A DNA stretch of 58,946 nt, counting the filler. It is 5 parts of 5 records of this genome, joined end to end, with 100 filler letters (N's around TTAATTAATTAA, not from the genome) between each part and the next. Parts side by side here need not be neighbours in the genome. Positions count along the whole stretch, not along the records: positions 13,178 to 25,017 come from SRR31156797_9826; 4 more parts are not named here. The stretch is one strand, 5' to 3'. This document shows, in pieces, positions 6,118 through 44,701 of this stretch; within the stretch, counting starts at the first letter, position 1; every line of letters begins with the position of its first letter. The notes below the pieces were generated by a model. The model saw only the letters and a program-made list of their open reading frames with translations. It did no database searches and was not told where the DNA came from. A program made the position numbers and the translations under genes.

Positions 6118-8799
6118 ATGATTGAAAGAATAAATTCCATAAAAAATCTGGCAGTATTTAAAGATTTCGATTGGGGAACTGCAGTAGTTGATCCAAATAA
6201 TACAACGCTTGATTTAAAAAAGATCAATATTATTTATGGACGTAATTACTCAGGTAAAACAACGCTCTCAAGAATTATAAGAGCTTTAGAGACAGGTGTG
6301 ATTTCAGATAAATATGAAAATCCTGAACTGAGTGTCAAAATAAAAGATTCTGCTGATGTAACTCATGCTAACTTTCTCGGTCATGATAAAATTATTCGTG
6401 TTTTTAATGATGATTTTATTAAGGATAATTTAAAGTTTATCATTAACCCAGATGACAGCATTCAACCATTTGCAATTTTAGGTGGAGATAATAATGTCAT
6501 AGAACAGAAAATTAGGGAGTTAAATGAAATTCTTGGTTCGAGCAAGGAAGGTCAAGAAACAAAACTTTATCAGGAACTTAAAAATCAAGATGAGCTTTCT
6601 AAAGGAGCTGGTACAACTCATAAATCAGCTAATGATACTCTAAATAATCAAATAAGAGCAAAAGCTTTAGATAGACAGTCTGGAATAAAATATCAACCTG
6701 AAAAATTCGGAAGACAAAATTACTCTCAAAAGAATTTAGTGGACGAAATTGCTATCGTTTTAAAAAATGATTTTAAACTGTTCAGAGAGGAGGAGCAAAA
6801 GTTAGCTTTGGAAGTTCTGACAGAAAGAAAGAAAAATCCGACAAAAGAATTGCCTAATCTCACCCTTAGTTTTCAGGAACATCTTGAGGGTACTAGTGAG
6901 TTATTATCTAGAAAAATTGGACGATCAGATAAGATTGAGGAGCTTGTTAAAGATGCTGTTCTTAATCGCTGGGTTAAGGATGGAAAAATTCAGCATAAAG
7001 GGAAAAGAAAAGTTTGTGCATTCTGCAATAATGAAATTTCAGATGAGAGATGGAAAGAGCTGGACAGACACTTTGATGAAGAATCCGATAAGCTTGAAAA
7101 AGATATCGTTGCTTTATTATCGAAAATGGCACGTGAAAAAGAGCTATTACAGAATGCTACGGGATTTAGGAAAGATGATTTTTATTCAGAGTTCCACGTT
7201 GATTTAGAGCTGTTGGTGGAGGAATACGCAAAATCCAAGTTAAACTATACTCAATCGCTTGAAGAGTTAGAAAAACAACTTAATAAGAGGAAAGAGGATT
7301 TGCTCAATGAAATTGAATTTCAAATGCCTAAAAATTACTCTAATGAGATTTCGGCTCTGAGAAGTCAATTTGAAGAATTACGAAAGAAATCTGATGATTA
7401 TTCAAGTAAGCTTGCTACTAAGCAAAATGAGGCAAAAGATTCATTAAGACTTAATGAAGTGTACAACTTTGTTCGGGATATTAAATATGAAGAGCAAGTA
7501 TCAAATATCGCAGCTTTAAAAGCAAAAGAAGAAGTTGAAAAGGGTAAGAAGCAAAATAAGCAAAAAGAAATTGACGATATTTTAGCTCAAGTTGATGAGA
7601 AGCAAAAGGAGCTCAAAGATGAAAGCAAAGGTGCTGAGAAAGTTAACGAATATTTAAATGACTTTTTTGGGCATGACTTTTTAACTCTAAAAGCAATAGA
7701 GTATAATGATATTGAATCAGGTGATAAAAAATATCGTTTTGAAATTTATAGAGAGGATAAAAAAGCTCACCACCTAAGTGAAGGAGAATGTAGTCTTATT
7801 GCTTTTTGCTACTTTATGGCAAAACTTCAAGATGTAGATACCAAGACGAAGAAACCTATAATTTGGATTGATGACCCTATCTCTAGTCTTGATAGCAATC
7901 ATATATTTTTCATTTACACATTAATCAATACACAAATCTTTGGTGAAGACGATTTTGAGCAACTTTTTATTTCAACCCATAACTTGGAATTTTTTAAATA
8001 TCTAAAACGATTGCCAGGAGCACATAATGATGACTCTAAAAATGAACGAAAAAAGAAGTATCGTCATTTAGTGGTGGAGAGGGTTGGAAATGAATCGACA
8101 ATTAAATTGATGCCAGATTTTTTAAAGCAATATGTCACAGAATTTAATTATTTGTTTAGCCAAATTTATAAGTGTTCTCAAATAGAAAGTGTAAACGATT
8201 CTAATTATACTGTATTCTACAATTTTGGAAATCATGCACGTAAGTTTTTAGAAATCTTCCTCTATTATAAATATCCTGATTCAACAGATGACCTAGCTAA
8301 GTTGAAGACTTTCTTTGGAGGAGAAGATGTTCCTGCTGTATTAACAAATCGAATTAATAATGAGTATTCGCATTTGAGTGGTATATTTGAGAGAGGTGGC
8401 ACTGTAGTGGAAGTACCTGAAATGAAAAGGACTGCAGAGAAGATAATAAATTGTCTGAAGCAGGATCGAAAACAATATGAGGCCTTATTAAGAAGTATTG
8501 GAGAGGGTGAAAAGGCAGATGCATTTGCCCAGCAAGCTGAAGCATACGAACTAAACAATGGTGCTAATATTATAACTGACCAACAAAAAGAGTTAATAAA
8601 AATCTGTAATGGTAATTGTATTGCATTGGATTTAAAGAAAGAATTAGGAATTAGAGATCATAAATTATTCGAAGAGAGATACTTGTTGCCAGCTATTGGT
8701 AGTGGACTTGTGAAAGGAAATGGAAGAAAAGGAAGAAAAAAGCAGTATTGTTTAACAACGGAAGGAGAAGATTTAAAAAATAGAATAACACGTTACTAA
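6118..8799 (+). CDS. rloC: RloC-like AAA_13 ABC-ATPase with zinc hook, HEPN nuclease and extra C-terminal winged helix
   Basis: Walker A GRNYSGKT, coiled coil with CAFC hook, signature LSEGE, Walker B/D-loop IWIDDPISSLD, H-loop STHN, HEPN-like RINNEYSH (8350-8373). Confidence 0.8.
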   Translation: MIERINSIKNLAVFKDFDWGTAVVDPNNTTLDLKKINIIYGRNYSGKTTLSRIIRALETGVISDKYENPELSVKIKDSADVTHANFLGHDKIIRVFNDDFIKDNLKFIINPDDSIQPFAILGGDNNVIEQKIRELNEILGSSKEGQETKLYQELKNQDELSKGAGTTHKSANDTLNNQIRAKALDRQSGIKYQPEKFGRQNYSQKNLVDEIAIVLKNDFKLFREEEQKLALEVLTERKKNPTKELPNLTLSFQEHLEGTSELLSRKIGRSDKIEELVKDAVLNRWVKDGKIQHKGKRKVCAFCNNEISDERWKELDRHFDEESDKLEKDIVALLSKMAREKELLQNATGFRKDDFYSEFHVDLELLVEEYAKSKLNYTQSLEELEKQLNKRKEDLLNEIEFQMPKNYSNEISALRSQFEELRKKSDDYSSKLATKQNEAKDSLRLNEVYNFVRDIKYEEQVSNIAALKAKEEVEKGKKQNKQKEIDDILAQVDEKQKELKDESKGAEKVNEYLNDFFGHDFLTLKAIEYNDIESGDKKYRFEIYREDKKAHHLSEGECSLIAFCYFMAKLQDVDTKTKKPIIWIDDPISSLDSNHIFFIYTLINTQIFGEDDFEQLFISTHNLEFFKYLKRLPGAHNDDSKNERKKKYRHLVVERVGNESTIKLMPDFLKQYVTEFNYLFSQIYKCSQIESVNDSNYTVFYNFGNHARKFLEIFLYYKYPDSTDDLAKLKTFFGGEDVPAVLTNRINNEYSHLSGIFERGGTVVEVPEMKRTAEKIINCLKQDRKQYEALLRSIGEGEKADAFAQQAEAYELNNGANIITDQQKELIKICNGNCIALDLKKELGIRDHKLFEERYLLPAIGSGLVKGNGRKGRKKQYCLTTEGEDLKNRITRY

Positions 8800-8850
8800 A
8801 TAAATTCTATGGTAAGAAGAATGAATTATTAAACCCAAATACAAGCTCCA

Positions 8851-11800
8851 ATGACTAACCAAGAAAAAAGCAAAACCAATAAATACTTTAATTTATCTCC
8901 TGAAACAGGTATAAAAACCCCAGTTTATTTTGAAGCTTTAAATGAAAGTTTCAGCAATGATTTAGTACACAATATTGCAATTACTGGAATATATGGAGCT
9001 GGAAAAAGTTCTGTTTTGGAATCGTTTATAAAAAACGATAACAATAACAATTACTTAAAGGTATCACTTGCTAATTTCTGCCAGTCAAACAACGTTGACG
9101 AAAATAAAATAGAAGAACACATTCTACAACAGCTTTATTATCAATTAACAGACAGTAATATTCCTCATTCCGGGTTTAAGAAAATTAGACACTTAAGTAA
9201 AAAAGAAATACAGAAGCTAATCATTTATGTGATTATTTGGTTATTCTCTATCGGCTTAATGCCCAAAACATTAAAACTACTTTATTTAAATCTACAAACA
9301 ATCTCAACCGAGGGAATCACTTCGTTTTTCCAAAAAATTATTTGGTCAGGCACTCTACTTAATCTTATAATTTTAGGTGTTTTTTGTTATGGTCTTTTTT
9401 ATTTCCTAAAAGAGTTGTTTATAATTAAACAAAAAGGATTACTAAAAAAAATAACAGTAAAATCGGCCCAAATTGATTTATCTGAAGATTCAGCACTAAA
9501 TAAACACATTGATGAGTTAATTTACTTTTTCGAAGCAACCTCAAATAATATTGTAATAATTGAAGATTTAGATCGCTTCAATAATATCTCTCTTTTTTCA
9601 AAATTAAGGGAGGTTAATTACCTGATCAATAACTCTCCTAAGGTAAACCAAGTTGTTAAATTTGTATATGCCATTAGAGATGATATTTTTACAAACAACT
9701 TAGACCGAACAAAGTTTTTTGATTTTATAATACCCATTGTTCCAATTATTAACACTACAAATTCAGGTGATAAATTACGAGAATTTCTTAAAAAAGAGAA
9801 TTCTAGTTTACCTGATACTTTTATTAATGACATTAGCCTTTACATACACGATTTACGTTTACTAAAAAACATTGTAAATGAATATTGGATTTACAACAAA
9901 GTCATTAATAAAAATAATCAAAAGAAGAAAATATCTTTATTTAGCATAGTCTTATATAAAAATCTTTTTCCTGATTTGTTTGGTAAAGAACATTCTGGAG
10001 ATGGTATTCTAATTAAAGCATTTAATGAGAAAAAAGATATTATAATTAAACAACTCACAGATTCGAAGAAAGAACAAATTAAAAAACTTGAAGAGCAAAA
10101 GAAATTAATAATTGCAGCAACAGCTAAAAATAAAATCAAATTAAGGGAAGAATATATCATTGAAATATTAAAATCACATAATAACGTCGTTGCCATCTGT
10201 AAAAATACAATTAATGGAATCATAACTAACGAAACAGATTTTAACAAACTACTCTCTTCCCCAAGCATCCAAACTCATACTAATGGAGCCTATCAAGCCA
10301 AGAGTCACGAATTAAATTTCGATGAAATTCAAAAGAAATTAGATCCAAATTTTTCTTATGAAGAACGTGTTGAATTATTAGTCAAGGATAAAAACAATAA
10401 ACAGAATAAATTAGATCATGACATCACAAGTTTAAAACTTAAAGTGTCTTCTTTAGAGTCTGAAAAACTATCAGAACTAATTAATAACTATGACTATAAT
10501 GATTGGAAAAATATCATTCTCAATAAGAAAGAAGAAAAACTATCTATAAATGAAGAACTTTTAGCATTATTACTTCGAAAGGGGTATATAGACGAAAATT
10601 ATCAATTATACATATCTCACTTTTACGAAGGTTCTTTAAATCTTAAAGATTTTGAATTCCTATTGAATGTAAAAAATAACGAAGGAGAAAATTTCGAAAT
10701 AGAAATTACTAATGTAAATGAACTCGTTTCTAGAATCACTGAAGATGAATATAAAAAGGAATCAGCATTAAATAAAGACCTGATTTCGTATTTACTTGGC
10801 AAATATGATTTAAAAAACACTAAATATTTAAGCTTACTTCTTTCTCAATTAAGCTCAAAAGGAGAAGAAGTTTTTAATGACTATATTCTACCGTTATTCA
10901 ATTCACTAGATACTCAAAAAAAATTAAATCGCTTTATCAACTTGCTAGTTGACAGGCATTATTCTTCATTGTGGGAAGCAATAGAATATGAAAACTATGA
11001 TGATGCTTCAAAAGATAAGTTTTTAAAGATATTTCTTTTTCTCACTAAAGAACGCTTTACAATTCTGAATAATGAATCTGATGGTGATTTAAAAAAATAC
11101 ATTTCAAATAAAGTAGATTTTATTGAAGTTTTTAATTCTGATAATAAACAAGATATTTTTAGACTAATAGAATCCTTAGATATAAAGTTTAGCTTTTTAA
11201 ATTACAAGAAATATGAATCAAATCAGATCTTCAGTTACATCTACGAAAACCATTATTACGAAATAAATGAGAGCATGTTGAAACTCATGCTTTCCAACGA
11301 ATACTCTATACCAGAAGAGGAATTCAATAGTTTGTTCTACTCTCAAAACTTCACTTGCCTCCATGATTCAATTTCACATGTTACAAGTGATTATATTTCT
11401 GATAATATTATTAGATATATTGAAGAAGTTTATTTGCAGCTAGAAAACCCTCAAAAAGAAAATGAATCCTCAATTCATTCTTTAATTCAGATATTAAGCA
11501 ATGGAAATGACAGTATCATACCTAAGGTTCTGCAAAAAATATCTACACAAATTAAAGACCTCGAAGAATTTTCATCAGATGAAAACATAAGCCTTTTAAT
11601 TAAGGCAAACAATGTAGATGCTAACTGGAAAAATTTAGTCTTTTATTTTATCCAAAATGAAAATCAGTTTGATGATATCATAATCAAATGGCTAAATGAA
11701 GAATCAATTTTTCAAGCAATTACAAAAAATAAATTTTATAATATAGATTTTTCTGGAATTGAAGAGAGTATATTAGATTCAATAAAAATTCAACTTATTG

Positions 11801-12483
11801 AAAGCAATGGTCTATCTATATCTGCTTATGAAAAAATAGCACTTTCTTTACCTTACATATATCCTGAAATTTCATTTTCAGATATTACTTCAGAAAAAAT
11901 AGATGTGCTTGTAAGTAACAAAAAAATTGAATTCAATCACTATCACTTTGATCAATTAACAGAACTTAACCTTAATAACCTGTTAGTAAAATTCACAATT
12001 AATAATTTAGATACTTTTATCAATAACCATTCAGATTATGAATTTAATTTAGCCTTGCACATTGGATTAATGAATTCAATCAATATTAGTTTTGCTGATA
12101 AGAAATTACTCCTGATAGTTATTTCTACTGAAAAAATTTCCGATCCTTCTTTAGCCACATTATTTGGTAACATGTTATTTAAGTCAAGAAAACCTCTTGT
12201 TAATGATAATAAACTTGTTACAATTATTCAAAAATCGAATGATATAGAACTAAAATTGAAGCTCTTCAATAAATTCTTTACCAGGTTCGATTTTGAAGCC
12301 ATAGATAATATTCTTGATAGTTTAGGAGGTGTTTATAGAAATGCCAATAAATTACGTAGAAGACCAGTATGGAAAAAAACTAAATTAAATCTTTCTATAG
12401 CTCATAAATTAAAAAATGCTAAATACTTTAAATCAGTTGAAGAAAGCAAAGATGATATTAATATAGTCGTTAGATATAACTAA
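8851..12483 (+). CDS. YobI-like/KAP-family P-loop NTPase with two TM helices and a long helical C-terminus
   Basis: NIAITGIYGAGKSS, two TM segments inserted after Walker A, Walker B IIEDLDRF, RTKFFDFIIPIVP, DLRLLKNIVNEY. Confidence 0.8.
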   Translation: MTNQEKSKTNKYFNLSPETGIKTPVYFEALNESFSNDLVHNIAITGIYGAGKSSVLESFIKNDNNNNYLKVSLANFCQSNNVDENKIEEHILQQLYYQLTDSNIPHSGFKKIRHLSKKEIQKLIIYVIIWLFSIGLMPKTLKLLYLNLQTISTEGITSFFQKIIWSGTLLNLIILGVFCYGLFYFLKELFIIKQKGLLKKITVKSAQIDLSEDSALNKHIDELIYFFEATSNNIVIIEDLDRFNNISLFSKLREVNYLINNSPKVNQVVKFVYAIRDDIFTNNLDRTKFFDFIIPIVPIINTTNSGDKLREFLKKENSSLPDTFINDISLYIHDLRLLKNIVNEYWIYNKVINKNNQKKKISLFSIVLYKNLFPDLFGKEHSGDGILIKAFNEKKDIIIKQLTDSKKEQIKKLEEQKKLIIAATAKNKIKLREEYIIEILKSHNNVVAICKNTINGIITNETDFNKLLSSPSIQTHTNGAYQAKSHELNFDEIQKKLDPNFSYEERVELLVKDKNNKQNKLDHDITSLKLKVSSLESEKLSELINNYDYNDWKNIILNKKEEKLSINEELLALLLRKGYIDENYQLYISHFYEGSLNLKDFEFLLNVKNNEGENFEIEITNVNELVSRITEDEYKKESALNKDLISYLLGKYDLKNTKYLSLLLSQLSSKGEEVFNDYILPLFNSLDTQKKLNRFINLLVDRHYSSLWEAIEYENYDDASKDKFLKIFLFLTKERFTILNNESDGDLKKYISNKVDFIEVFNSDNKQDIFRLIESLDIKFSFLNYKKYESNQIFSYIYENHYYEINESMLKLMLSNEYSIPEEEFNSLFYSQNFTCLHDSISHVTSDYISDNIIRYIEEVYLQLENPQKENESSIHSLIQILSNGNDSIIPKVLQKISTQIKDLEEFSSDENISLLIKANNVDANWKNLVFYFIQNENQFDDIIIKWLNEESIFQAITKNKFYNIDFSGIEESILDSIKIQLIESNGLSISAYEKIALSLPYIYPEISFSDITSEKIDVLVSNKKIEFNHYHFDQLTELNLNNLLVKFTINNLDTFINNHSDYEFNLALHIGLMNSINISFADKKLLLIVISTEKISDPSLATLFGNMLFKSRKPLVNDNKLVTIIQKSNDIELKLKLFNKFFTRFDFEAIDNILDSLGGVYRNANKLRRRPVWKKTKLNLSIAHKLKNAKYFKSVEESKDDINIVVRYN

Positions 12484-14605: not shown

Positions 14606-14646
14606 AAAAAACAAAACCCTCTTCCAGCATAAACTAAAAGAGGGTA
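14606..14646 (-). terminator. Intrinsic terminator of the kds/kdn cluster
   Basis: Minus strand ACCCTCTTTTAG-TTTATG-CTGGAAGAGGGT followed by TTTGTTTTTT. Confidence 0.75.
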
Positions 14647-14669: not shown

Positions 14670-15344
14670 CTACTCTACCGGCTCACAAACAGTCTCAATC
14701 AAATTTCTTTGATTGAGATATTGTGTATAATCTCCTGTAAATTCAATTCTTGTTTCAATCGCATCAGGTAAACTTCCTACCAAACCAATAATCAACTCAC
14801 AAACTTCTCTAACACCACCATTTCCACCTAAACTCCCTGTTCTGTAATCACAGCTTTTATTGTCAACCAAGAACTGATTAAACAATGGATTAGCCTTTCG
14901 ATTAATTTGAAAACTGGCTCCTACAGATCGAGCCAATTCAACATCTAATATATCATCAAAAAAGAAAGCAATTTCCTCTGGCTTAAGATTATTTTCTTTA
15001 CAGATACGATCTAAAGCTCTCACTTTAAATTTACACTTATAAAATGCAGCATTCATATGCTCGCGCTTAGCTAAAAACTGAGCACTTTTATTTTCTTCAC
15101 CTGTTACAATAAAGGTAGCCGGCAACTGACCATTTCTAAGCCAATAATCCAACTTGAGCATATTAACACCCATGGCATCAGGCTCAGCAAAACTACTACC
15201 TTCATTATTTACCTTAGATCCATTATTAAACACACCATCCCAATCAAAAATAAAGGCTTTAATTTTGGACAGTTTTTGTTTTAATTCATCAACAGGAGTA
15301 ATAAAAAAACCTCCAATCTCTTCAAATTGCGTTTGAATATTCAT
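14670..15344 (-). CDS. kdsC: KdsC-like HAD phosphatase (Kdo-8-P phosphatase)
   Basis: IKAFIFDWDGVF, FFFDDILD, GGNGGVREVCE; adjacent to kdsB. Confidence 0.8.
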   Translation of the reverse strand: MNIQTQFEEIGGFFITPVDELKQKLSKIKAFIFDWDGVFNNGSKVNNEGSSFAEPDAMGVNMLKLDYWLRNGQLPATFIVTGEENKSAQFLAKREHMNAAFYKCKFKVRALDRICKENNLKPEEIAFFFDDILDVELARSVGASFQINRKANPLFNQFLVDNKSCDYRTGSLGGNGGVREVCELIIGLVGSLPDAIETRIEFTGDYTQYLNQRNLIETVCEPVE

Positions 15345-16100
15345 TTACAGTTTCTTTATCAATTCATTTGCTTTTTGTAAATCTTCAGGCGTATCTATAC
15401 ACATGGTTTCATCTAACTCCGTTACTACACAAGTAACCGGAAAACCATTTTCAATCCACCTCAACTGCTCTAGAGACTCTGCTTTTTCAAGAGACGATTG
15501 TTCCAGCTTTACCACCTCATTCAATACATCTGTTCGGTAAGCATAAATTCCCAAATGACGATAAAAGGTTTGATTTTTCAACCAATCCTTCTGATCTACA
15601 TTTCTTAGAAACGGAATAGGAGATCGACTAAAATAAATACCTTCTCCTTTGTGATTTAAGACAACTTTCACCTCACTCTGGCTCAACACCTGATCTAAAT
15701 CTTTGGCTTCCTGAATTAAGGTAGCAATTTGAACATCAGAATCACTAAACACCGATTTTATATCTTCTAATTGTGCAGCTTCAAAAAAAGGTTCATCACC
15801 CTGAATATTAACAACTACATCAGACTTAACTCCGTATTTCTTTTCGATATTAACCGCTGCTTCAGCACAACGATCCGTACCGCTGGTATGATCTTCTCTG
15901 GTCATCACCGCCTTCCCACCAAAAGCCTCAACAGCATCTACAATTCGCTGATCATCTGTCGCAACAAAAACATGTTCCAAGCCCTTTTGACAATTTTCAT
16001 AAACCCATTGCACCATCGGCTTATCCCCAATCATAGCCAAAGGTTTTCCAGGCAATCTGCTCGAAGCATAACGACTTGGAATAATTCCTACTATATTCAT
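15345..16100 (-). CDS. kdsB: CMP-Kdo synthetase
   Basis: IIPSRYASSRLPGKPL, SGTDRC, NIQGDEP, LEKAESLEQLRW; ATG 16100. Confidence 0.95.
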   Translation of the reverse strand: MNIVGIIPSRYASSRLPGKPLAMIGDKPMVQWVYENCQKGLEHVFVATDDQRIVDAVEAFGGKAVMTREDHTSGTDRCAEAAVNIEKKYGVKSDVVVNIQGDEPFFEAAQLEDIKSVFSDSDVQIATLIQEAKDLDQVLSQSEVKVVLNHKGEGIYFSRSPIPFLRNVDQKDWLKNQTFYRHLGIYAYRTDVLNEVVKLEQSSLEKAESLEQLRWIENGFPVTCVVTELDETMCIDTPEDLQKANELIKKL

Positions 16101-16106
16101 ATTTAT

Positions 16107-16137
16107 AGACAAAAGACAAAAGAATAAAGACAAAAGA
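16107..16137. repeat. Heptamer tandem repeat (AGACAAA)x4
   Basis: AGACAAA AGACAAA AGAATAA AGACAAA immediately 5' of the kdsB start. Confidence 0.7.
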
Positions 16138-16209: not shown

Positions 16210-17298
16210 TTACATTCTTTTAAAAAGATCTTTAATCTCTTCTTTTGATATTTTATTTCTCCAATCAGGACCAAAAGCATTATTCCACATATGCTCCAAA
16301 GCCCAAGCAACCTCTACCATATGATCAAATTGTTCTTCAGAACATCCGGCAGTAATTCCCGCAGGAATATCAACACCCTGAGCAGCCTGCATCTCTTTAA
16401 ATATCTTATATCCATCCGGATAATACTTTTCAAGCTGATTAAATACAATACAATTACCGACTCCATGATGCGTACCCAGAACTACTGCCAATCCATAAGA
16501 CAATGCATGACAAACACCCACCTGACCATAAGTAGTGCTATTACCACCCATAATAGATGCCACCATCATTTTCTCATCTGCCTCCAATCTATTCTCATAT
16601 CTATTCATGAAAACATTAACGGTAATTTCGTTTGATTTTTCAGCAAAAGCCAGCCCCATAGAATTTATCCAGCTACCATTCATAGATTCTACATTATGAA
16701 TGAAGTTATCCATTCCTGTAAAGAAGCGATCTTCATCAGGAACTGTAGCTAATAACTCTGGATCAAAAACAACTTCATTGGGAATGGTATAATCACATTT
16801 GATACCCAGTTTTTTTTCCGGGCCACTCAAAACAGCCGTCATCGAAACTTCTGCACCTGTACCTGTAATTGTAGGAATACAAATAGTATAAATTCCTTCG
16901 TTTTTAATTAAATCCAAGCCTTGATAATCTTTCGAATCGCCAGGGTTTGTAACCATTAACCCTGTAGCTTTGGCATAGTCCATAGAAGTTCCTCCTCCCA
17001 TACCAACCATTACAGCCGGTTTGGCGTCATCGTGCATTAAAATAAGATCACGATATTGATTTACCAATACTGTTTTAGGCTCATCCGTTGGATCAATAAA
17101 AATAACCAAGTCTTTATCGGTTGTAGGAATACGATCTAACACTTCTTTTTTATCCTGAAAAAAGTGATCAATCATAAAAACAACCCAATCATTGGTTTCA
17201 TTCTTTTGTTTATCTATTAATTCTCCTAAGTGATTAAAACTTCCTTTTCCGAAAGCATAACGACCCGGATTTACAAAACTTCTAAAATCGTATAGCAT
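16210..17298 (-). CDS. kdnB: Fe-type alcohol dehydrogenase, KdnB-like Kdo 8-oxidase
   Basis: GGGTSMDYAK, IPTITGTGAEVS, CHALSYG, HHG; adjacent to kdnA. Confidence 0.8.
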   Translation of the reverse strand: MLYDFRSFVNPGRYAFGKGSFNHLGELIDKQKNETNDWVVFMIDHFFQDKKEVLDRIPTTDKDLVIFIDPTDEPKTVLVNQYRDLILMHDDAKPAVMVGMGGGTSMDYAKATGLMVTNPGDSKDYQGLDLIKNEGIYTICIPTITGTGAEVSMTAVLSGPEKKLGIKCDYTIPNEVVFDPELLATVPDEDRFFTGMDNFIHNVESMNGSWINSMGLAFAEKSNEITVNVFMNRYENRLEADEKMMVASIMGGNSTTYGQVGVCHALSYGLAVVLGTHHGVGNCIVFNQLEKYYPDGYKIFKEMQAAQGVDIPAGITAGCSEEQFDHMVEVAWALEHMWNNAFGPDWRNKISKEEIKDLFKRM

Positions 17299-17520: not shown

Positions 17521-18702
17521 TTATCCTAAAACTTTATCGAAAGCTTTACAAACAGCCTCTAATTGCTCCGGAGTACTTGTAATATTCAAATTGATTGACA
17601 CCAATCTTCCGATTAAATCATAAGACTTAGGCAGATCAAGATTATTATAATCCTGTGGCTTATCTAAAAACTGCATCCCAACTGGTCCGGCTACCTTACA
17701 CTCTTTTAGGTGATCCCAGTTTTTAATAAAGTGATAATTATTATCAAACCAATATGCTGCAGCCACACCTTCAGCACCTAATTCAGCACAAGCTTTTTTC
17801 GCTTCCTCCTGTGTTGGTAAAAAGAAATTCAACACCGTAGCAGAATCTCCTGCTTCGTCAGGAACATTACGAAATACCACCTGTGGAAATTTCTTTAAAT
17901 AGTCCTTCAACACTTTTTTATTCGCACGAAGTCTTTCCAGGATATAATCGATTTTTCTAAACTGAGCTAATCCCACTGCCGCATGCAATTCACTGATACG
18001 ATAGTTTGTTCCTAAGATAGGATGCTCTTCTGCTCCTCGATTGTTTCCTATATGACTATGACCATGATCAGACCAGGTATGAGCAGTTGTATAAACTTCT
18101 TCATCATTTGTTAATACTGCTCCACCTTCACCGGCAGTAATCAACTTAAAGAAGTCGAAAGAATAACAGGCCACTTTACCAAAAGTACCCAACATCTTAC
18201 CTTTATAAGACCCACCCAAAGCCTGAGCAGTATCTTCAATTAAGATGATATTATGCTTATTACACACTTCAACAATTTCATCAATCTGTGCCATAGCACC
18301 TACCATATGGATAAGCATTACAGCTTTTGTTTTAGGTGTAATGGCCGCCTCAATAGACGCTGCAGACAAACAAAGCGTTTCATCAATTTCTGCAAAAACA
18401 GGCACTGCTCCACAATTAACTACCGCTTCAACAGGCGCAATAAATGTAAACGGAGGAACAATTACCTCATCACCAGCCCCAACACCAACAGCTGCTAGAG
18501 AAACCGCATCTGCAGCCGTTCCACTTGACACCAGGTGACAATATTTTGCACCATGATATTCAGCAAACTCTTTTTCTAACTGCTTTGCTTTCCAAATACC
18601 TTTTCTTTGTTCATCATGATTATATCTAAACAGGATTCCAGTCTCCAAGACTTCCATTACCTGTTCTTTTTCTTCTTTACCAAATAATTCTGTACCCGGC
18701 AT
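17521..18702 (-). CDS. kdnA: DegT/DnrJ PLP aminotransferase, KdnA-like (8-amino-Kdo synthesis)
   Basis: MPGTELFGKEEK...LFRY, SFDFFKLITAGEGG and SDHGHSHIGNNRGAEEHP closely follow KdnA motifs. Confidence 0.85.
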   Translation of the reverse strand: MPGTELFGKEEKEQVMEVLETGILFRYNHDEQRKGIWKAKQLEKEFAEYHGAKYCHLVSSGTAADAVSLAAVGVGAGDEVIVPPFTFIAPVEAVVNCGAVPVFAEIDETLCLSAASIEAAITPKTKAVMLIHMVGAMAQIDEIVEVCNKHNIILIEDTAQALGGSYKGKMLGTFGKVACYSFDFFKLITAGEGGAVLTNDEEVYTTAHTWSDHGHSHIGNNRGAEEHPILGTNYRISELHAAVGLAQFRKIDYILERLRANKKVLKDYLKKFPQVVFRNVPDEAGDSATVLNFFLPTQEEAKKACAELGAEGVAAAYWFDNNYHFIKNWDHLKECKVAGPVGMQFLDKPQDYNNLDLPKSYDLIGRLVSINLNITSTPEQLEAVCKAFDKVLG

Positions 18703-18839: not shown

Positions 18840-19862
18840 TTATAAAATTTCAAGTTTTACCAAATCCTGAACATCCAACATACCTGCAGGCTTACCATTA
18901 CTTGTAGCAATAATATTGTCCACTTGTTTTTCTTTAAAAATGCCAACTGCAGTATGTAGCTTTTCGTCAATATCAACATTGATAGGCATTTTCATTTCAA
19001 AATCACTCATTTTCATGGTAAGGATTTTCTCACCATCAATATTCATATGACGACGTAAATCGCCATCAGTAAAGATACCTACAAGATTTCCTTCAGCATC
19101 AACAACAGAAACTGCACCAGTGGCATATTTAGTCATTTCAACAGTAGCATCAGTTACCAAAGCATCTAATCCGATAGTTGGATTTTTACTTCCAATAACC
19201 TCACCTACTTTCATTGTCATCTGACGTGTATGATTCACAAACTGCTGTGTACCTATTTCTGTAAAGTTATTGTTATTTAGGTTTTTCATAATACCCCAAG
19301 GAATAGTGATATTCTGACAACCCAACTCAATCGCATTTTTGATATGTTCAGGATGACGAACAGAAGAGAACATGATTTTAGTATTGTAGTTATACTTGTT
19401 CACTAAATCAACACAATCCTTCACTAATTTTAAAGCATCGTATCCCTGATCTTGCATACGACCAACCAACACACAAACATAAGTTGCTCCTGCAGCCATA
19501 GCCATGTATGCTTGCTGAATATTGTACACCAAGTGAATATTCACCATCATATCCTCGTCGCGAAGCATTTTACATGCTTTTGCCGCTACTAAGGAAGCTG
19601 GAATTTTAAATACAGTTTTTTTCTTATCTAAACCTAAGCTTAATAAACGTTTTGCCTCAGCTACAATTTCTTCCGCTGTATCTCCCAGCGCTTCAATCAT
19701 TAAAACAGGCACTTTTTTAGATAGCTCAACAATTGCTCCGTCGATATCTGTTATGCCATGTCTGTGCATAAAAGTAGGCGTGGTTGTTAATCCATCTATA
19801 AAACCTAGTTCAAATGCTTCTTCAATTTCTTTTATGTCAGCAGAATCAAGATATAATTCCAT
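18840..19862 (-). CDS. Transaldolase/fructose-6-P aldolase family domain fused to a CBS pair
   Basis: MELYLDSAD, GLTTTP, Schiff-base VFKIP, VGRMQD, SSVR; C-terminal ~120 aa has GIFTDGDLRR and GMLDVQDLVK (KdsD-type CBS pair). Confidence 0.85.
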   Translation of the reverse strand: MELYLDSADIKEIEEAFELGFIDGLTTTPTFMHRHGITDIDGAIVELSKKVPVLMIEALGDTAEEIVAEAKRLLSLGLDKKKTVFKIPASLVAAKACKMLRDEDMMVNIHLVYNIQQAYMAMAAGATYVCVLVGRMQDQGYDALKLVKDCVDLVNKYNYNTKIMFSSVRHPEHIKNAIELGCQNITIPWGIMKNLNNNNFTEIGTQQFVNHTRQMTMKVGEVIGSKNPTIGLDALVTDATVEMTKYATGAVSVVDAEGNLVGIFTDGDLRRHMNIDGEKILTMKMSDFEMKMPINVDIDEKLHTAVGIFKEKQVDNIIATSNGKPAGMLDVQDLVKLEIL

Positions 19863-19886: not shown

Positions 19887-20720
19887 TTAAATTTCTATTC
19901 TAGTTTGTTTCTCGATATTATGTATTTCAATTAAAGGCTTAAGAAATTCCTCTAATTTATCCAATGGATATTGGCTGGCTGCATCACAAAGTGCATTGGT
20001 ACAGTCCGGATGCGCTTCAATAAAGATACCATCGATACCCGCAGCTACCCCTGCACGTGCGATTGGTCCCAAATACTGACGGGTTCCTCCATTAGGGTCA
20101 GAACTTGGAATACCATATCTTCTGATACAATGCGTAATATCAAACACTACCGGATATCCGGTTTGTTGCATCTCGTAAAAGCTTCTTGGATCAACAATTA
20201 AATCATTATATCCAAAAGTATAACCACGCTCAGTAACCATGATATTTTTGTTTCCAAAATGCTCAATTTTCTGAACTGGCTTAATCATATTTTCCGGAGC
20301 TAAAAACTGTCCGTGCTTTACATTAATAGCCTTACCTGTTTTAGCAGCCTCTGTTACCAATGAAGTTTGCATACACAAATACGCCGGTATTTGAATTACA
20401 TCCAACACCTCTGCAGCTGGTTTTACCTCTGCGGCCTGATGTACATCTGAAATAACAGGTACATCAAAAGTATTTTTTACTTTCTCAAGCATTTTTAAGC
20501 CTTCTTCTAAACCAGGACCATGGTAAAATTCTACAGAACTACGGTTATCCTTAATGTAAGAAGATTTAAAAATAAATGGAAGATTAAGATTTTCTGCGAT
20601 CTGCTTTAATGTCTCAGCAGTATTCATCATGATGGATTCATCTTCAACTACACAGGGACCTGCGATTAGAAAAAGTTTATCCTTACCAAACTCTTGTTGG
20701 CCAACTTTAATATTCTTCAT
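19887..20720 (-). CDS. kdsA: Kdo-8-phosphate synthase, metal-dependent type, variant motifs
   Basis: IAGPCVVE, KSSYIKDNRSS, KHGQFLAP, TERG, FDITH, EAHPD...LCD; ATG 20720. Confidence 0.9.
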   Translation of the reverse strand: MKNIKVGQQEFGKDKLFLIAGPCVVEDESIMMNTAETLKQIAENLNLPFIFKSSYIKDNRSSVEFYHGPGLEEGLKMLEKVKNTFDVPVISDVHQAAEVKPAAEVLDVIQIPAYLCMQTSLVTEAAKTGKAINVKHGQFLAPENMIKPVQKIEHFGNKNIMVTERGYTFGYNDLIVDPRSFYEMQQTGYPVVFDITHCIRRYGIPSSDPNGGTRQYLGPIARAGVAAGIDGIFIEAHPDCTNALCDAASQYPLDKLEEFLKPLIEIHNIEKQTRIEI

Positions 20721-21811: not shown

Positions 21812-24146
21812 TTAAAAAGTCCAACTATAACTTACTGATGGAATGATTGGAAATAAAGTTTGCTTAAACAAGCGGGGCTCCGTTTCATCAAACCACTCCG
21901 CTCCTAGCTCCCTGCTCCAAAAATAGAAGTAGGCATTTTGACGGCAATACAAATTATATATACTCAATCGCCAAATTCGTTCGCCACGATTTCTCTTTTT
22001 TATAAAATTCACTCCAATATCCAAGCGATGATAAGCTTCCATACGAGTAGCGTTCTTTCCATCATATTTTTCCACACGAACATAAGGCTTCTCATACTCA
22101 TCTCGTTGTTCATGAGGGATGATATAACTTTCCTTAGCCAAGGTAATTGCATTGCCAGAATGATATACCCATGTCGCAAAAAAATCTATACTTGGCCTTA
22201 ACTGTTGCTGAAATACTATACTAATATCATGAGGTCGATCATACCTGAACGAATATGTTTTTCCCTGATTTACTTCATTAAATTTACGCGTGGTTTTAGA
22301 TAATGTATAGCCTATCCACCCAGTGGTTCTTCCCTTATTCTTTTTTACCAGAAACTCAACACCTTTTGCAATCCCTATACCTTCTCCCTCAATATGATCC
22401 TGCCAATTTCCTAAGCCTGTAAATTGTGATATTCCATCCTTAAAGGATATTAAATTACGCATTTCCTTATAATAGGATTCTACACTAAACTCATACATTT
22501 TATTAGCCGAGGTATGTGCCCAACCGACAGAATACTGAGTAGACAATTGAGGAGCCAGTTTTTTTTGTAGCAGGTAACCAATAATCTGTTGGCATCCCTG
22601 TTCCGGCACCCGTTAGCAGATGGACGTTTTGTTGCATTTTAGCATAACCAAGCTTAAAGGCATGGGTAGCTGAAAAATTATAATTCAATACCAGCCTAGG
22701 CTCTAAGGACGGAAACGACCTGTCTTTAACGATATAATTGGCATAACGGATACCTGCATTCAGATTTACATTTGGGAACAATTGAATTTCATTTTCAAGA
22801 TAAACATTGGCCTCTTGCGCCTCTTCCCCATAACGTACTAAAGTAGAATCATTATCAACCCCGTCAACACGCTGATGGTTATGGATACGAGTAGGCATAT
22901 ATTGATGATAAATAAAGCTTCCGCCAACACGAAATGTATATCCATTGCTAATATACCATTCAAGATCTTTCTTCAAACTCCAATCCGACACACTGGACAA
23001 GAATTGATATTCCATTTGCAGCCCATCTCCATTATAATTCTGTTTAATAGCATTTCTATACTGCGTATAGGAAACAGTAACATTACTAAATAATTTTGGT
23101 GTATAAACATGATTCCAGCGCGCAGCTCCCAGCGTATTTCCCCATCTTAATCTGCCTTTGGATTTGACATCACTCTCCTTGGAACTAAATGAATTTACAC
23201 TTCTGTCATCTCCAGAATAAAAGCTAAAATACAACCTGTCCGTCTCATTTATTATATGATTAAACTTGGCATTTACATCGTAAAAATGGTATCCCATTGA
23301 TGCGCCGTTAAACAACAATGGAGTAAGTGGGCGCATCAGAACATCATACATCATCCTTCGCACTGAAATTAAATACGAAGATCTTTCTTTTTTTACAGGA
23401 CCTTCTAAAGTTATTTTTGAAGATACCAGTCCAATACTTGCATTACCTTTAAATCCTTTGTTATTACCATTCTTCATCCTAACATCCAATACCGATGACA
23501 AGCGAGAACCATAACGAGCCGGAAAACCGCCTTTTATCAACTTTACATCATTAATAGCATCTGGATTAAAAGTAGAAACAAACCCGCCCAAATGATTGAC
23601 ATAATATAAAGGTACGTCATCCAGTAAAATCAAGTTTTGATCCGGACTTCCCCCACGCACATACATTCCACTACTTGCCTCACCTCCCTGACTAACCCCA
23701 GGTAACAACTGCAAAGCTTTAATTAAATCCACCTCTCCACCCAAAGCAGGAATACGCTTGACCTCATTCATCGTCAGCTTATTTACGCTTACTTCAGCCC
23801 GCTGCTCAATTGGTCTTTCTGCATTCACACTCACCTCTTGAATAGCAATACCCGGGTTTAGCTTTATCAATACCAAGGTATCGGACAATACACTAAAGGC
23901 TTCTGTATAATATTCATATCCTACGTAAGAAAACTTAATAGAGTAAACTCCCTTCTTGGTAAAGTTGAAATTAAAATAACCAAAAGAATTACTGGCCTGC
24001 CCCTGTTCCGTATCACTACAATAGACACTCACGCCAATCAAAGGTTCACCAGTCGTAGCATCCACCACGTGCCCCGAAACATTTACCTGCGCAACCAGCT
24101 TACCCACCAACAGAAGACAGATAAGCAACAATATACATAAACGCAT
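21812..24146 (-). pseudogene. TonB-dependent receptor, frameshifted in an A8 tract
   Basis: Plug motifs (LQLLPGV, VRGGSPDQNL, GGFPARYGSRLSSV) and C-terminal PSVSYSWTF are split into two ORFs. Removing one A at 22559-22566 gives ...WLPATKKLAPQLSTQYSVG and 777 aa. Confidence 0.85.
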
Positions 24147-24990
24147 TATAATTTATTAATATGAGAAATTTGGCTGTAGCCGGCAAAAATACCATAGCCA
24201 TTATTAATATTAGTGTGAGCATCAACCGGATTACCTGAACCATCCCATAAGTCCCCGACTTGATTGACCAAATTTAGATATAACCGTTTTTTGAACAAGA
24301 AATAACTTTCAGAAACAGTGCGCAACTGTATTTCTACCTCATCAATACCATTACAAGCATCCCCAACCATATTAAAGAATTCAAAAGAAAATTGGTAGGC
24401 TTTATCATTGATTAACTCATTACTAAACAACAAACCAATACCAGTGTAATTATAATTAACCACCCCTTCATTCCTTACAACAATATCCTGGCTACTTAAA
24501 TATTCATAATACTGACTATCTTCTCCTTGCCCACACACATCAAACACTTTTCCAATCATCCTAAGTTCAAAGTATGTTCTATCCTTGGGTACATTTTTTA
24601 AAGTAATGGTGATAGATGAAATATCATCACCCTCATAATCCACATTTGCCTTAGGTACGTATTTATCAATTGTAAAGTCTACAGGTAGTGGGATTTTATC
24701 TGTAGCACTTACTGTTGGGTAGCCTACAGCACTGGCCACCAATTCGTATTCCACACCATACTGCCCCTTTAGCGATGCACGATATAAAGAATCTTTTACA
24801 CATTGCATGGGATAACTTACGCCATTAGCACTAATCACAACTTCTGCCTCTTCATTTAAGGTATAAACGGTATCCGAGGCAGAAACAACTTTTGTAACTA
24901 ACGCTTCAATCTCATCCTCATTAGTAATATAACTACCAATTACCAACCTTGGCTCTGGCTTAGAAAGATAAATATCTACCTCTTTAAAAC
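24146..24990 (-). pseudogene. DUF4249-type lipoprotein lacking its signal peptide
   Basis: Reading frame FKEVDIYLSKPEPRLVIGSYI...HTNINNGYGIFAG. Upstream codons are RVKRVG after a TAA, with no start or lipobox before the contig end. Confidence 0.6.
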
Positions 24991-25517: not shown

Positions 25518-28500
25518 ATGAAGAAAGAAAAAACATCAGAAACCAAAATGGAAGGGGCACCATTGTTAAGCGGAGTGAATAGCCACAACACCATCAAAAA
25601 TTATATTTATGCGCCGAGGAAAATCCACGTGCTCTTATTATTTTTGTTGGGGGTCATTTTTTTATTATCGATTGTAAACGTAACATATCCTCACATACTC
25701 TGGAAGCATTTTAAACTTACCGATTATCCCTTGCATTCAACCCTTGAGGCATTGGGTGCAATTGTAGCAATCTTAATGGCATTTATGCCGCTTCAGGTTT
25801 TGTTTGGTAAGTTCAGGCCTTCCTATGTCTTTGTGTCAGTAGGTTTTTTGGTTATGGGTTTATGGGACTTGTTTCATTCATTCTATCTGATCGGGCATGG
25901 TTTTGTATTTACGCATACCATAGCATTGTTATCAGGAGGGTTCTTCTTTGCCCTTATTGTTTTACCCTGGAATTTTAATCCCATATCTACTAAGAAGGCC
26001 ATCATGTGGTCTGCCGTATGCCTCACTTTGATTTTAGCCGCGCTGACGGCCACCAACAGATCATTATTTCCCGAAATGATTCACGATGGCCATTTTACCA
26101 CCACAGCAAAATATTTGAATCTTGCAGCGGGACTGTTGTTTTTAGTAAGTGCCAGTAAGCTTTTTGCTATTTATCTCCGCGATAAGAACATAGGTGTGTT
26201 GATACTGGTATTTGTAGCTGTTTCTTCAGCGATTGTCGGCATTACATTTCAGTATTCAATGGCCTGGAAAGATGATTGGTGGCTGTGGCACATTATCCGT
26301 TTTGTTGCATTTCTGGCGATTTTGGGCTACATGTTTTGGCGAATCCGCATTGTAAATAACGAACGAAACAAAGCCCTGAAGGATTTGGAATATCAACATA
26401 TTCAACTTGCTGAAAGCGAAAAAAGATTTAGCCTGGTGAACGAAGCAACGGGCCATGGGCTCTGGGATTGGAATGTAGTGACGAATGAAGTTTACTTTTC
26501 GCCTGTATGGAAAAAGCAAATCGGGTATGAAGAAGATGAACTGGAAAATACGTTTGAAAACTGGGTGGGCCATTTGCATCCGGATGACAGGGAACGAAGC
26601 CTGAAACAGGTGGAAGAATACATTAATAATCCGGGTAAAAAATTCATCATCGAATTCAGATTTAAACATAAAGACGGGCATTATGTGTGGATCCATAACG
26701 AAGCTGCATCTGAGAAAGACGATGAAGGAAAAGTGATACGCATGTTTGGTGCTCATACCGACATCACAAAACAAAAAGTTGCTGAGGAAAAACTTAAGGA
26801 TAGCGAGAAACAGTTTCGTATTGTTTTTGAAAATTCACCCATTGGGAAGTCACGAACCGGCCTGGATGGTTCGCTTAATACCAACCTGGCCTTTTCAAAA
26901 GCAACAGGCTACTCTCTGGATGAGTTGAGACAGAAAAACTGGAAAGATATTACACATCCTGATGATATCGGGAAGCACGAAGAGATCAATGATTATTTAC
27001 TAGCCGGAAAACATGATCAAGCCAACTTCGAAAAGAGGTATCTGCATAAAAAAGGGTATTATATCTGGGTGGAAGTAAGTACTACCTTACACCGGAATAA
27101 AGACGGAGAACCGCAATATTTTATCTCCACCATTAATGACATCACAAACCGCAAAGAGAGTGAAGAACAAATCAGGCAAAGCGAGAAAAAGTTCAAGGGC
27201 CTCTTCGAAAACGATCCCAGTGCCATTTTTATAGCCGATCCCCAAACAGGTTTGCTGCATGATGTAAATCCCGCTGCTGAAAAACTGATGGAAATGAGCC
27301 GCGAAGAATTGATCGGACTGCACCAGTCGAAATTGCATCCGGAAGATGTGATGGAAGAACAAATTAAACAATTTAAAGAATTGCAAAATCAGCCGGATGT
27401 TTCAGTCGACACAGTTGTTCTTACAAAATCGGGCACAAGAAAGCCGGTAGAGATCAAAGTATCGATGTTTGAAATTGATGGAAAACCCCAAATCCTGGGC
27501 ATCTTCCATGATGTTTCCAGGCTCGTCGAAGGTCAGAAAAAACTGAAAGAGAGTGAGAAAAAATACCGTACATTAACCGAATCATCACAGGATCAAATCT
27601 TTACCATTAGCAAAGATTTGAGTGTACTATATGTAAATACCAGAGCGGCAAAATCGTTTCGCAGCTCACCTGAAGAAATAGTTGGTAAACAGTTAAAGGA
27701 CATTTTCCCTCCTGAGATTGCACAACAGCAATCAGAAAGCATCAGCAAAGTCATCGAAACCGGGAAATCAATTTCAAGTGTAACCGAATCTGTTTTCCCG
27801 GATAAAACCATGTGGCTTGACACCACGTTGGTCCCGCTAAAAAATGAAAGTGGAGAAACAGAAGCCGTGATGGGTGTATCGCGAGACGTATCGGCACAAA
27901 AAATTGCTGAAGAAGCATTAAAGCAAAGCGAAGAGAAGCACCGTGCAATTTTTAAATCAGCAACTGATGCTTTTATCATCGTGAACATGGAAGGTAAAAT
28001 CGTTGAAGTAAACCCTTCTGCCTGTAACACTTATGGCTACGAATACGATGAAATGATTGGCAGGGAGGTACCATCTATTATTCACCCGGACTATCATTAT
28101 AAATTCACGGAATTTATGCATGATATCCTGGAAAAAGGTTCCTACTACGGCGAGACCATTGATCTGCGTAAAAATGGTTCTACATTTCAATCCGAGGTTC
28201 ACGGAACTATTATCCAGCTTAATGGTGAGCCACACATGCTGGGGATTATCCGCGATGTGAGTGAGAAAAAACAACGCGAGGATGAGTTAAAACTGAAGGA
28301 TATCGTTTTTCGGTCGTCGGTTGCCGCAAACAGCACAGCAGATTTGGCCGGGAACTTAACCAGTGTCAACCAATCGTTTTTAAACCTCTGGGGGTATGCA
28401 TCGGAGGAAGAGGTACTGGGTGAGCCAATTCCTAAGTTTATCAAATATGAAAAAGAAGCCGGTGAAATACTTGAGGGATTGAATGCTGAAGGAAAATGGC

Positions 28501-31382: not shown

Positions 31383-31434
31383 ATTAATCAGGCTAAAATG
31401 AACAACAATACAAATTAACAAAAACAAATTTTTT

Positions 31435-31896: not shown

Positions 31897-31971
31897 AAAT
31901 GGGTTACCTCAGCGATAAATTTGAAACGTAAGTACTTTGATTTAACGTAGGTTCAATAATATAAATTAACT

Positions 31972-32412: not shown

Positions 32413-32464
32413 TTGCCAATCATTTTAAGACTAAAGCACCTGAGTAACAAAAATTTGAAATTTT

Positions 32465-33604: not shown

Positions 33605-33701
33605 ATCGAATCAGCAAGTTAAATCATAGCATTTGATGTGAGGTCAATGTTAGGATGAGTTTTTTATACAGGAGAATAAGCAACTTTAATACTTTTTGTT
33701 T

Positions 33702-34235: not shown

Positions 34236-34249
34236 CATTGTAAAACCCC

Positions 34250-35614: not shown

Positions 35615-35693
35615 TACCAGTATATTTTTCTTACATCAAAAATAAACCTGTTTTTGGAAGATATAAAACCAGGCAGGCAAAACCGGTAAAACA

Positions 35694-36134: not shown

Positions 36135-36198
36135 CCCGGTTTATCCGGAACGCCAGTACTGGTTTGAAATAAAACAAATTGAATTAGATTAAGTGAAC

Positions 36199-44666: not shown

Positions 44667-44701
44667 ATCACTAAAGAAGCCAATCATAAGGGCAAAGGCT
44701 T

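Follow-up and report, generated by a model that had tools for sequence, protein, structure and literature searches.

A transaldolase-CBS fusion predicted to replace the SIS-type arabinose-5-phosphate isomerase and paired with a variant KdsA in the Kdo operon of a marine Bacteroidota

Synthesis of Kdo (3-deoxy-D-manno-octulosonate) is indispensable to the outer membrane in most Gram-negative bacteria, its enzymes KdsD, KdsA, and KdsB have been studied as antibiotic targets, and its first step has so far been assigned exclusively to SIS-type isomerases. A single-domain SIS-type arabinose-5-phosphate isomerase (API) of Bacteroides fragilis has reportedly been characterized, and the KdsD/KpsF/GutQ isomerases are described as a SIS domain with two CBS domains (PMC10448790). 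The window analyzed here, a stretch of 58,946 nucleotides made of five parts joined with filler letters, contains an operon with the gene order kdsA-X-kdnA-kdnB-kdsB-kdsC, all on the minus strand, in which X encodes a transaldolase-CBS fusion protein of 340 residues (P0001). Comparison of this locus with its relatives predicts that the fusion supplies the product of the adjacent kdsA, a variant synthase designated KdsA*, with arabinose 5-phosphate (A5P) in place of a SIS-type API, as one half of a co-evolved pair, and this is the reading we consider probable. Positions count along the whole window, and statements about the whole genome rest on the source chromosome (G001), whose locus L001 is 100% identical to the window; it is a chromosome of 5.7 Mb from an uncultured marine Saccharicrinis (Marinilabiliaceae, Bacteroidota).

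The N-terminal half of the fusion is a barrel of the transaldolase/fructose-6-phosphate aldolase (TAL/FSA) type. Residues 3–204 match TAL_FSA (Pfam PF00923; E-value 4.3e-35, 121.9 bits against a cut-off of 27), and the same triosephosphate isomerase (TIM) barrel is found in the short TalC-type transaldolases of ∼215 residues (Thermotoga maritima TM0295, PDB 1vpx; Thermoplasma acidophilum, 3s0c; Bacillus subtilis, 3r8r; phmmer E-value 1.3e-33). The AlphaFold2 model, for which 37 family members were used, is confident, with a predicted local distance difference test score (pLDDT) of 93.1, and its top Foldseek match is 1vpx; 1vpx and 3s0c superpose with a template modeling (TM) score of 0.94 on the target, a root mean square deviation of 1.4 Å, and 30–32% identity. 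Escherichia coli FsaA (1l6w) has the same fold and Schiff-base chemistry and gives a weaker match (E-value 4e-16). The protein falls below the NCBIfam transaldolase equivalog TIGR00875, scoring 151.9 bits against a cut-off of 245.95, and is likewise under the cut-off of every other NCBIfam TAL/FSA equivalog. Its C-terminal half contains two CBS stretches (Pfam, E-value 5.3e-12) whose best NCBIfam CBS matches are KpsF, KdsD, and GutQ. Model TIGR00393 covers the protein at model positions 150–264 only (E-value 1.8e-13, 50.7 bits against a cut-off of 203.7), and the same half matches the CBS fragments of arabinose-5-phosphate isomerases in PDB entries 4o9k and 3k2v. A Pfam search for the SIS domain (PF01380) in the fusion gives no match. 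These results bear out a sequence-only reading of the locus, which had described X as a TAL/FSA barrel fused to a CBS pair with the motif GIFTDGDLRR and had proposed that the regulatory CBS module of KdsD was kept. The fusion thus shares with KdsD/KpsF/GutQ the C-terminal CBS pair and, putatively, the role of A5P supplier for KdsA, whereas their catalytic SIS domain is wholly absent and an unrelated TIM barrel stands in its place, so that its chemistry cannot equal that of KdsD. Members of the fusion family are named "transaldolase", "fructose-6-phosphate aldolase", or "CBS domain-containing protein" in the databases.

No SIS-type isomerase is encoded in the kds cluster, as had been noted from the sequence, and this holds for the whole of G001, in which no SIS-type API is found and the only SIS matches are GlmS and a GmhA. 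The chromosome has one KdsA and one KdsB, both in the fusion operon, and one WaaA. In 121 genomes of the GTDB family of the source, in which full-length fusions were counted, 28 have the fusion, 87 have a SIS-type API (two full-length KdsD and 85 single-domain proteins of about 200–220 residues), none has both, and six have neither. A SIS-type API is accordingly present in 0 of 28 carriers and in 87 of 93 non-carriers (Fisher p = 6e-22, uncorrected for kinship). In a sample of 401 genomes of the phylum, six genomes carry the fusion, and a SIS-type API occurs in none of these six, all candidates having been scored, compared with 288 of 395 non-carriers; 289 matches were listed, one of which is the CBS tail of a carrier's own fusion. 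Five more carriers (a Microscillaceae genome, two metagenome-assembled genomes (MAGs) labeled Deltaproteobacteria, a Flavobacteriales MAG, and a WOR-3 MAG) also lack it, giving 0 of 11 carriers checked separately from the family sample. Absence of kdsD from carriers, the check that the earlier reading had proposed for itself, is therefore what was found.

About a quarter of the non-carriers in the phylum sample also lack a SIS-type API, and for this reason the phylum-level absence of KdsD was dropped as stand-alone evidence. When 19 of these API-less non-carriers were rechecked with all candidates scored, all 19 proved truly without a SIS-type API, 18 were also without KdsA, and all 19 have a canonical transaldolase. 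The KdsA search in the 18 (G004, G009, G014 ... G077) gives only matches resembling 3-deoxy-D-arabino-heptulosonate 7-phosphate (DAHP) synthase, at about 120 bits, and judged from their gene content these genomes appear to lack the Kdo pathway altogether. Because API-less non-carriers mostly lack KdsA, the argument for replacement is not weakened, and in the genomes examined KdsA is accompanied by either a SIS-type API or the fusion. The single-domain SIS-type APIs of the family sample are the functional counterpart of the fusion in its closest relatives and are mutually exclusive with it; unlike the fusion they have another fold, no CBS pair, and no linkage to kds genes, the SIS gene lying more than 8 kb from any kds gene in 10 of 10 non-carrier relatives. 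On this account the notion of a conserved KdsD position taken over by the fusion within the GTDB family was abandoned. What stands of the earlier claim that it sits where KdsD would be expected is the linkage of a full-length KdsD to kdsA, one or two genes away, seen only in two more distant Bacteroidota, G170 and G306.

The sequence-only reading overlooked the neighboring KdsA, which likewise belongs to a type of its own and varies together with the fusion. It matches the metal-dependent Kdo-8-phosphate (KDO8P) synthases of Aquifex aeolicus (1fwn) and 6mdy over its full length (E-values 5e-76 to 8e-73) and also exceeds the cut-off of TIGR01362 (337.5 bits against 314). The metal ligands Cys, His, Glu, and Asp (GPCV, TH, E, CD) and the Asn-Arg-Ser of KANRS are the same, whereas five motifs on which 6mdy and 1fwn agree exactly (KANRS, LCRQT, KKGQ, THSVQ, ALSD) differ. 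Compared with five canonical relatives and the two solved enzymes, KANRS becomes KDNRS, LCRQT becomes LC(V)MQT, KKGQ becomes KHGQ, A(K/L)SD becomes ALCD, and THSVQ becomes TH(S/C/A)IR(R/K) in a loop longer by one residue; the window's protein reads KDNRS, LCMQT, KHGQ, THCIRR, and ALCDA. We take the Arg of LCRQT and the Arg-Ser of KANRS to bind the phosphate of A5P; a search of open-text literature for the roles of Arg106 and KANRS in KDO8P synthases found none. Each of the 59 fusion-linked kdsA genes encodes the KdsA* signature. In the family sample the KdsA of all 28 carriers is 77–98% identical to that of the window, and none has a second, canonical KdsA, compared with 43–51% identity in the 85 non-carriers that have a KdsA. 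Carriers from other phyla have KdsA proteins 57–69% identical to the window's, and those of the six carriers in the phylum sample are 59–98% identical, the next being G170 (53%) and G306 (51%), both with canonical motifs. In one genome (G372) the fusion and kdsA lie on different contigs and the KdsA* motifs are still present. A functional coupling of the fusion and KdsA* as a co-varying pair is supported by these comparisons, and the correspondence between the change in this next enzyme and the change in the barrel points to co-adaptation of two consecutive enzymes. A complex prediction for the fusion with KdsA* scored 0.00 and gave no answer, and is evidence in neither direction.

The rebuilding of both enzymes could also mean that the barrel makes an aldose phosphate other than A5P, which KdsA* condenses with phosphoenolpyruvate (PEP) to give a Kdo analogue. 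The five altered motifs and the altered barrel active site speak for such a pair; however, KdsA* keeps the metal ligands and the Asn-Arg-Ser and exceeds the curated KDO8P synthase cut-offs, KdsB is over its own cut-off, KdnA and KdnB closely resemble the Kdo-acting enzymes of Shewanella, and G001 has a single WaaA and no other KdsA. A different substrate is for these reasons improbable.

The active site of the fusion was read from a residue-by-residue alignment to 1vpx; its residue numbers happen to coincide with those of the T. acidophilum transaldolase (TacTAL). Kept are Asp6, Glu57 (Glu60 in TacTAL), the Schiff-base Lys86, which lies in FKIP aligned to KIP of 1vpx on strand 4, Asn108, Arg135, Ser166, and Arg169, and in motif terms KIP retains its Lys, (S)AEV its Glu, LDxA its Asp, and SIRHP its S-x-R. 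Replaced are Asn28 by Thr, Thr110 by His, Ser130 by Cys, Pro131 by Val, and Phe132 by Leu, corresponding to the changes from TTNPT to TTTPT, from NVTLVFS to NIHLVYN, and from YVSPFVGR to YVCVLVGR. Relative to the TalC-type transaldolases, then, the fusion has Lys86, Asp6, the Glu, Asn108, Arg135, and the Ser/Arg phosphate site in common and differs in His110, Cys130, Leu132, Thr28, the C-terminal CBS pair, and a genomic partner that is kdsA rather than pentose-phosphate genes. Conservation was assessed on 138 full-length fusions (320–400 residues) out of 271 proteins, a biased set in which 120 of the 138 are at least 61% identical to the window's fusion: Lys86 and His110 are each conserved in 134, Leu132 in 133, and Cys130 and Arg135 in 132 each. 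Position 28 is Thr in 128 and Asn in nine, so that the signature of the fusion family is His110/Cys130/Leu132. The altered active site described in the earlier reading is confirmed by the alignment as regards TTTP, NIHL, YVCVLVGR, and the retained Lys, with the correction that TTTP is not family-wide.

The catalytic set of transaldolases is presumably Glu60/Thr110/Phe132 with Ser130 and Asn28, a numbering supported by PDB titles, and FSA enzymes are, we assume, marked by Gln at the position of Glu60 and Tyr at that of Phe132, as seen in the FSA-like gene of G001 itself. A search of open-text literature for the roles of Thr110 and Ser130 in TacTAL found none. Instead of the FSA signature Gln/Thr/Tyr of FsaA or the Glu/Thr/Phe of transaldolases, the fusion has Glu/His/Leu together with the Cys. 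It is very unlikely, in consequence of several findings, that the fusion is an ordinary enzyme, a transaldolase or another of pentose-phosphate metabolism, brought under CBS control while A5P comes from an unrecognized enzyme elsewhere. Three catalytic-site residues of transaldolase are replaced family-wide, the score lies under the equivalog cut-off, and five non-carrier relatives have 0, 0, 1, 1, and 2 TAL_FSA genes; since these counts vary, the fusion does not track a missing transaldolase but tracks the missing API and the KdsA type. In favor of an ordinary enzyme, no canonical transaldolase (Glu/Thr/Phe) was found in G001, the only other TAL_FSA gene of which (L069:1492–2157) is FSA-like with the signature Gln/Thr/Tyr, and Labilibacter marinus has a second copy of the fusion among pentose-phosphate genes. 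This copy (cluster L018:5117–12726) is 82% identical and not adjacent to kdsA, and it is accompanied by genes for a short-chain dehydrogenase/reductase, a haloacid dehalogenase (HAD) protein, a zinc alcohol dehydrogenase, an FSA-like protein, transketolase, a phosphogluco/mannomutase, and a class-3 fructose-1,6-bisphosphatase (FBPase). The FSA-like gene (L069:1492–2157; L112, L113, L018:5117–5779) is 86–90% identical in carriers and non-carriers alike, and the copy of G001 is 87–90% identical to that in two of three non-carrier relatives checked, the third having a 64% homologue. It was rejected as either a real transaldolase or the source of A5P, being FSA-like and common to non-carriers.

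Replacement of KdsD function by the fusion is well supported as a prediction from gene content, given the mutual exclusion with SIS-type APIs, the sole kdsA, kdsB, and waaA genes of G001, the pairing with KdsA*, and the absence of KdsA from API-less non-carriers. As to how the replacement would work, the context of the L. marinus copy among transketolase, phosphomutase, and FBPase genes points to the pentose-phosphate pool, and A5P would be made from ribose 5-phosphate or ribulose 5-phosphate (Ru5P). An aldopentose 5-phosphate would bind through C1 to Lys86; ordinary transaldolases reportedly bind A5P covalently as a Schiff base. The His110/Cys130 pair could provide new acid-base groups, and the reaction might proceed either by proton transfer at C2 or by cleavage and re-formation of the C2–C3 bond (retro-aldol/re-aldol) while the two-carbon fragment stays bound to the enzyme, in which case free glycolaldehyde would not be needed. 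The KdsD-type CBS pair would probably confer end-product control by CMP-Kdo, the sugar activated with cytidine monophosphate (CMP), or a related nucleotide, and downstream KdsC, KdnB, KdnA, and KdsB would turn Kdo 8-phosphate into Kdo, 8-amino-Kdo (Kdo8N), and the CMP-activated sugar. A more far-reaching version, which we put forward only tentatively and regard as rather doubtful, is that the His/Cys-type barrel is a Schiff-base pentose-phosphate 2-epimerase or isomerase making A5P, a reaction that would be new to biology, and that with KdsA* it forms a self-contained, horizontally mobile two-gene Kdo-8-phosphate module that has displaced KdsD/KdsA in several lineages and is also found on viral contigs.

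Several points weigh against the assignment of the fusion as an A5P supplier or against its proposed chemistry. The 28 carriers of the family sample probably belong to one or two clades and so are not 28 independent events. Degenerate fusions, most of them lacking the Schiff-base Lys, have no kdsA nearby in any of six metagenome loci (L090–L095), so that the architecture alone does not predict function. The KdsA* signature is common in the wider family without being universal, since KANRT is found in three of seven partners on viral contigs, and its changed motifs could mean that a sugar phosphate other than A5P is used. The kept Asp6, Glu57, and Asn108 fit aldol chemistry at least as well as proton transfer, and this retained carbon-carbon machinery together with the FsaA precedent leaves room for a route from glycolaldehyde and glyceraldehyde 3-phosphate (G3P). 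Finally, a Schiff base on a ketose such as Ru5P cannot give an aldose by simple tautomerization, and an isomerase would consequently need Lys86 in another role.

The sequence-only reading favored this route, an FSA-type aldolase in which Lys86 carries free glycolaldehyde as an enamine that adds to G3P to give A5P. The class-I aldol set is complete in the fusion (Lys86, Asp6, Glu57, Asn108, and the phosphate site), and His110 could stand in for the Tyr of FSA as a proton relay. Precedent is provided by E. coli FsaA, which reversibly interconverts A5P with glycolaldehyde and G3P with a KM of 0.65 mM and a kcat of 3.6 per s (PMC6900487). However, no glycolaldehyde-forming enzyme is present in the operon or in any conserved neighborhood, position 132 is Leu and not the Tyr of the FSA-like gene of G001, that FSA-like gene is common (87–90% identity) to two of the three checked non-carriers, which still need a SIS-type API, and the viral contigs have the barrel and kdsA only. 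We therefore regard the FSA-type reaction as unlikely. Of the non-orthologous aldolase route originally proposed, the part that survives is a stand-in for the API, whereas condensation of glycolaldehyde with G3P is unproven, the FSA signature being missing and no glycolaldehyde source evident.

If the fusion does supply A5P, the whole lineage would build Kdo without a SIS-type isomerase, using a rebuilt transaldolase barrel that has only the regulatory tail of KdsD. This would add a new activity to the TAL/FSA family, a group with much use in biocatalysis, would allow the names "transaldolase" and "fructose-6-phosphate aldolase" to be corrected in thousands of database entries, and would explain lipopolysaccharide (LPS) production in genomes seemingly without A5P synthesis. 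Within an established enzyme superfamily the fusion represents an uncharacterized variant, which is coupled to a variant KdsA and belongs to an essential pathway. A full-text literature search, which did not extend to supplementary files, turned up neither an account of a transaldolase-CBS enzyme nor one of an alternative A5P source in Bacteroidota; the co-varying KdsA type, the Lys-less degenerate paralogues, the CBS-less relatives, and the link to Kdo8N are new here.

The relationships of the barrel were examined in a tree of 99 barrels, comprising 21 fusions chosen from the 138 and 78 short proteins, after rows with fewer than 170 barrel residues had been dropped. A branch with a Shimodaira-Hasegawa-like approximate likelihood ratio (SH-aLRT) support of 95 separates all 59 Thr-type TAL/FSA sequences from all His-type barrels, and among the latter fused and CBS-less forms are interleaved; the stand-alone His-type proteins come from genuine, complete genes. 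Four fusion clusters at 50% identity lack Lys86 and most of the signature, some of them also His110 and Arg135, and in the tree the Lys-less fusions are a nested, derived clade beside those of Bacteroidota. Such forms would be at home in a scheme in which the fusion is a non-catalytic partner of the pathway, a pseudo-enzyme regulator sensing a sugar phosphate or CMP-Kdo. Since the degenerate forms are derived and unlinked to kdsA, they have no bearing on the kdsA-linked type; the window's fusion and 134 of the 138 keep the catalytic set, and a regulator would leave the origin of A5P unexplained, so that a purely regulatory role is scarcely credible. The Lys-less fusions were for the same reason rejected as a test of the importance of Lys86. 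Among the degenerate paralogues (P0126, P0128, P0131, P0139) most have Lys changed to Arg or Ser, the one at L091 retains Lys and lacks His, Cys, and Arg, and L093 and L095 have a type I phosphodiesterase and an M61 peptidase as conserved neighbors.

His-type barrels also occur at eight loci on IMG/VR contigs classed as viral (L099–L106), three with the CBS pair and five without. These barrels are only 31–61% identical to that of the window, yet kdsA is adjacent in seven of the eight loci, and the contigs carry just the barrel-kdsA pair. Apart from the three KdsA partners with KANRT, the remaining four have KDNR(S/T) and LCMQT.

Several of the API-less genomes encode stand-alone CBS-pair proteins of 147–204 residues that resemble the KdsD tail. 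A lead from the ESM Atlas (rank 14, score 0.78) is a cluster of 115 proteins of ∼334 residues, mostly from Bacteroidota, in which a ribulose-phosphate 3-epimerase (RPE) barrel is joined to a CBS pair, and which may add a third kind of catalytic barrel to those joined to a tail like that of KdsD. A search for such RPE-CBS fusions in 10 API-less genomes gave only ordinary Rpe of 223–279 residues.

The features of the operon are collected in the table below. Profile and PDB matches substantiate the gene order given in the earlier reading, with a weak kdsC member. The start of kdsA is probably the ATG at 20720, the open reading frame (ORF) finder extending it to a GTG at 20777. A sigma-70 promoter scan is uninformative for Bacteroidota, and the terminator-like hairpin alone was used to delimit the operon.

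Table. Features of the transaldolase-CBS operon in the window.
Feature	Positions	Strand	Basis or remark
kdsA*, variant metal-type Kdo-8-phosphate synthase	19887-20720	-	NCBIfam NF003543, 347.8 bits against a cut-off of 242
X, TAL-CBS fusion (P0001), 340 residues	18840-19862	-	open ORF, Pfam, NCBIfam, 1vpx alignment, AlphaFold2 model
TAL/FSA-type TIM barrel, residues 1-212	19227-19862	-	Pfam, 1vpx alignment, family conservation
Key codons of barrel	Asp6 19845-19847, Thr28 19779-19781, Glu57 19692-19694, Lys86 19605-19607	-	
Key codons of barrel	His110 19533-19535, Cys130 19473-19475, Leu132 19467-19469, Arg135 19458-19460	-	
KdsD-type CBS pair, residues 219-336	18855-19208	-	TIGR00393, PDB 4o9k and 3k2v
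GIFTDGDLRR, residues 262-271	19050-19079	-	translated sequence
kdnA, Kdo 8-aminotransferase	17521-18702	-	PDB 5k8b, E-value 1.2e-139, full length; next match 1.8e-52
kdnB, Kdo 8-oxidase (iron alcohol dehydrogenase fold)	16210-17298	-	PDB 5k8c, E-value 1.5e-94; 3rf7, E-value 2.6e-101; next match 9e-24
kdsB, CMP-Kdo synthetase, start codon uncertain	15345-16133	-	NF003952, 306 bits (cut-off 193)
KdsC-like HAD phosphatase, weak match	14670-15344	-	NF007019, 50 bits, under the cut-off of 208
Terminator-like hairpin, 13 pairs and T run	14616-14645	-	consensus scan only; closes operon before rpsL and rpsG

The neighborhood of the fusion, another check suggested earlier, was compared in 61 related loci (L001–L061), a set biased to close relatives and including several truncated loci. 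The kdsA gene is directly upstream of the fusion in 59 of the 61, and the KdsC-like HAD gene keeps its position directly after kdsB in 21. Both kdnA and kdnB are present in 51 of 61 loci, the order being kdsA-TALCBS-kdnA-kdnB-kdsB-kdsC in Marinilabiliaceae and kdnA-kdnB-kdsA-TALCBS in Prolixibacteraceae. KdnA and KdnB are full-length matches to the Shewanella oneidensis enzymes (5k8b, 5k8c), here found within a Bacteroidota Kdo operon beside the fusion and KdsA*. Their presence suggests Kdo8N in the LPS of marine Bacteroidota, a sugar that to our knowledge has been described only from Shewanella.

Elsewhere in the window, a TonB-dependent receptor gene (CarboxypepD_reg, Plug, beta-barrel) at 21812–24146 on the minus strand is split into overlapping ORFs (22503–24146 and 21812–22609), which is a frameshift or assembly error, and is followed by a DUF4249 gene at 24146–24946. 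Two regions on the plus strand look like defense genes: positions 6118–12483 encode an AAA_13 ATPase (893 residues) and then a YobI-like P-loop NTPase (1210 residues), and positions 41284–47986 encode a type I restriction-modification system with HsdM (41284–43374), a 431-residue ORF (43371–44666), and HsdR (44702–47986). Positions 25518–39165, also on the plus strand, have a G+C content of 0.40–0.42 compared with 0.26–0.38 in the preceding 26 kb, and hold a 1954-residue multi-PAS histidine kinase, two hybrid kinase/response-regulator genes, and a 990-residue response regulator with PAS domains.

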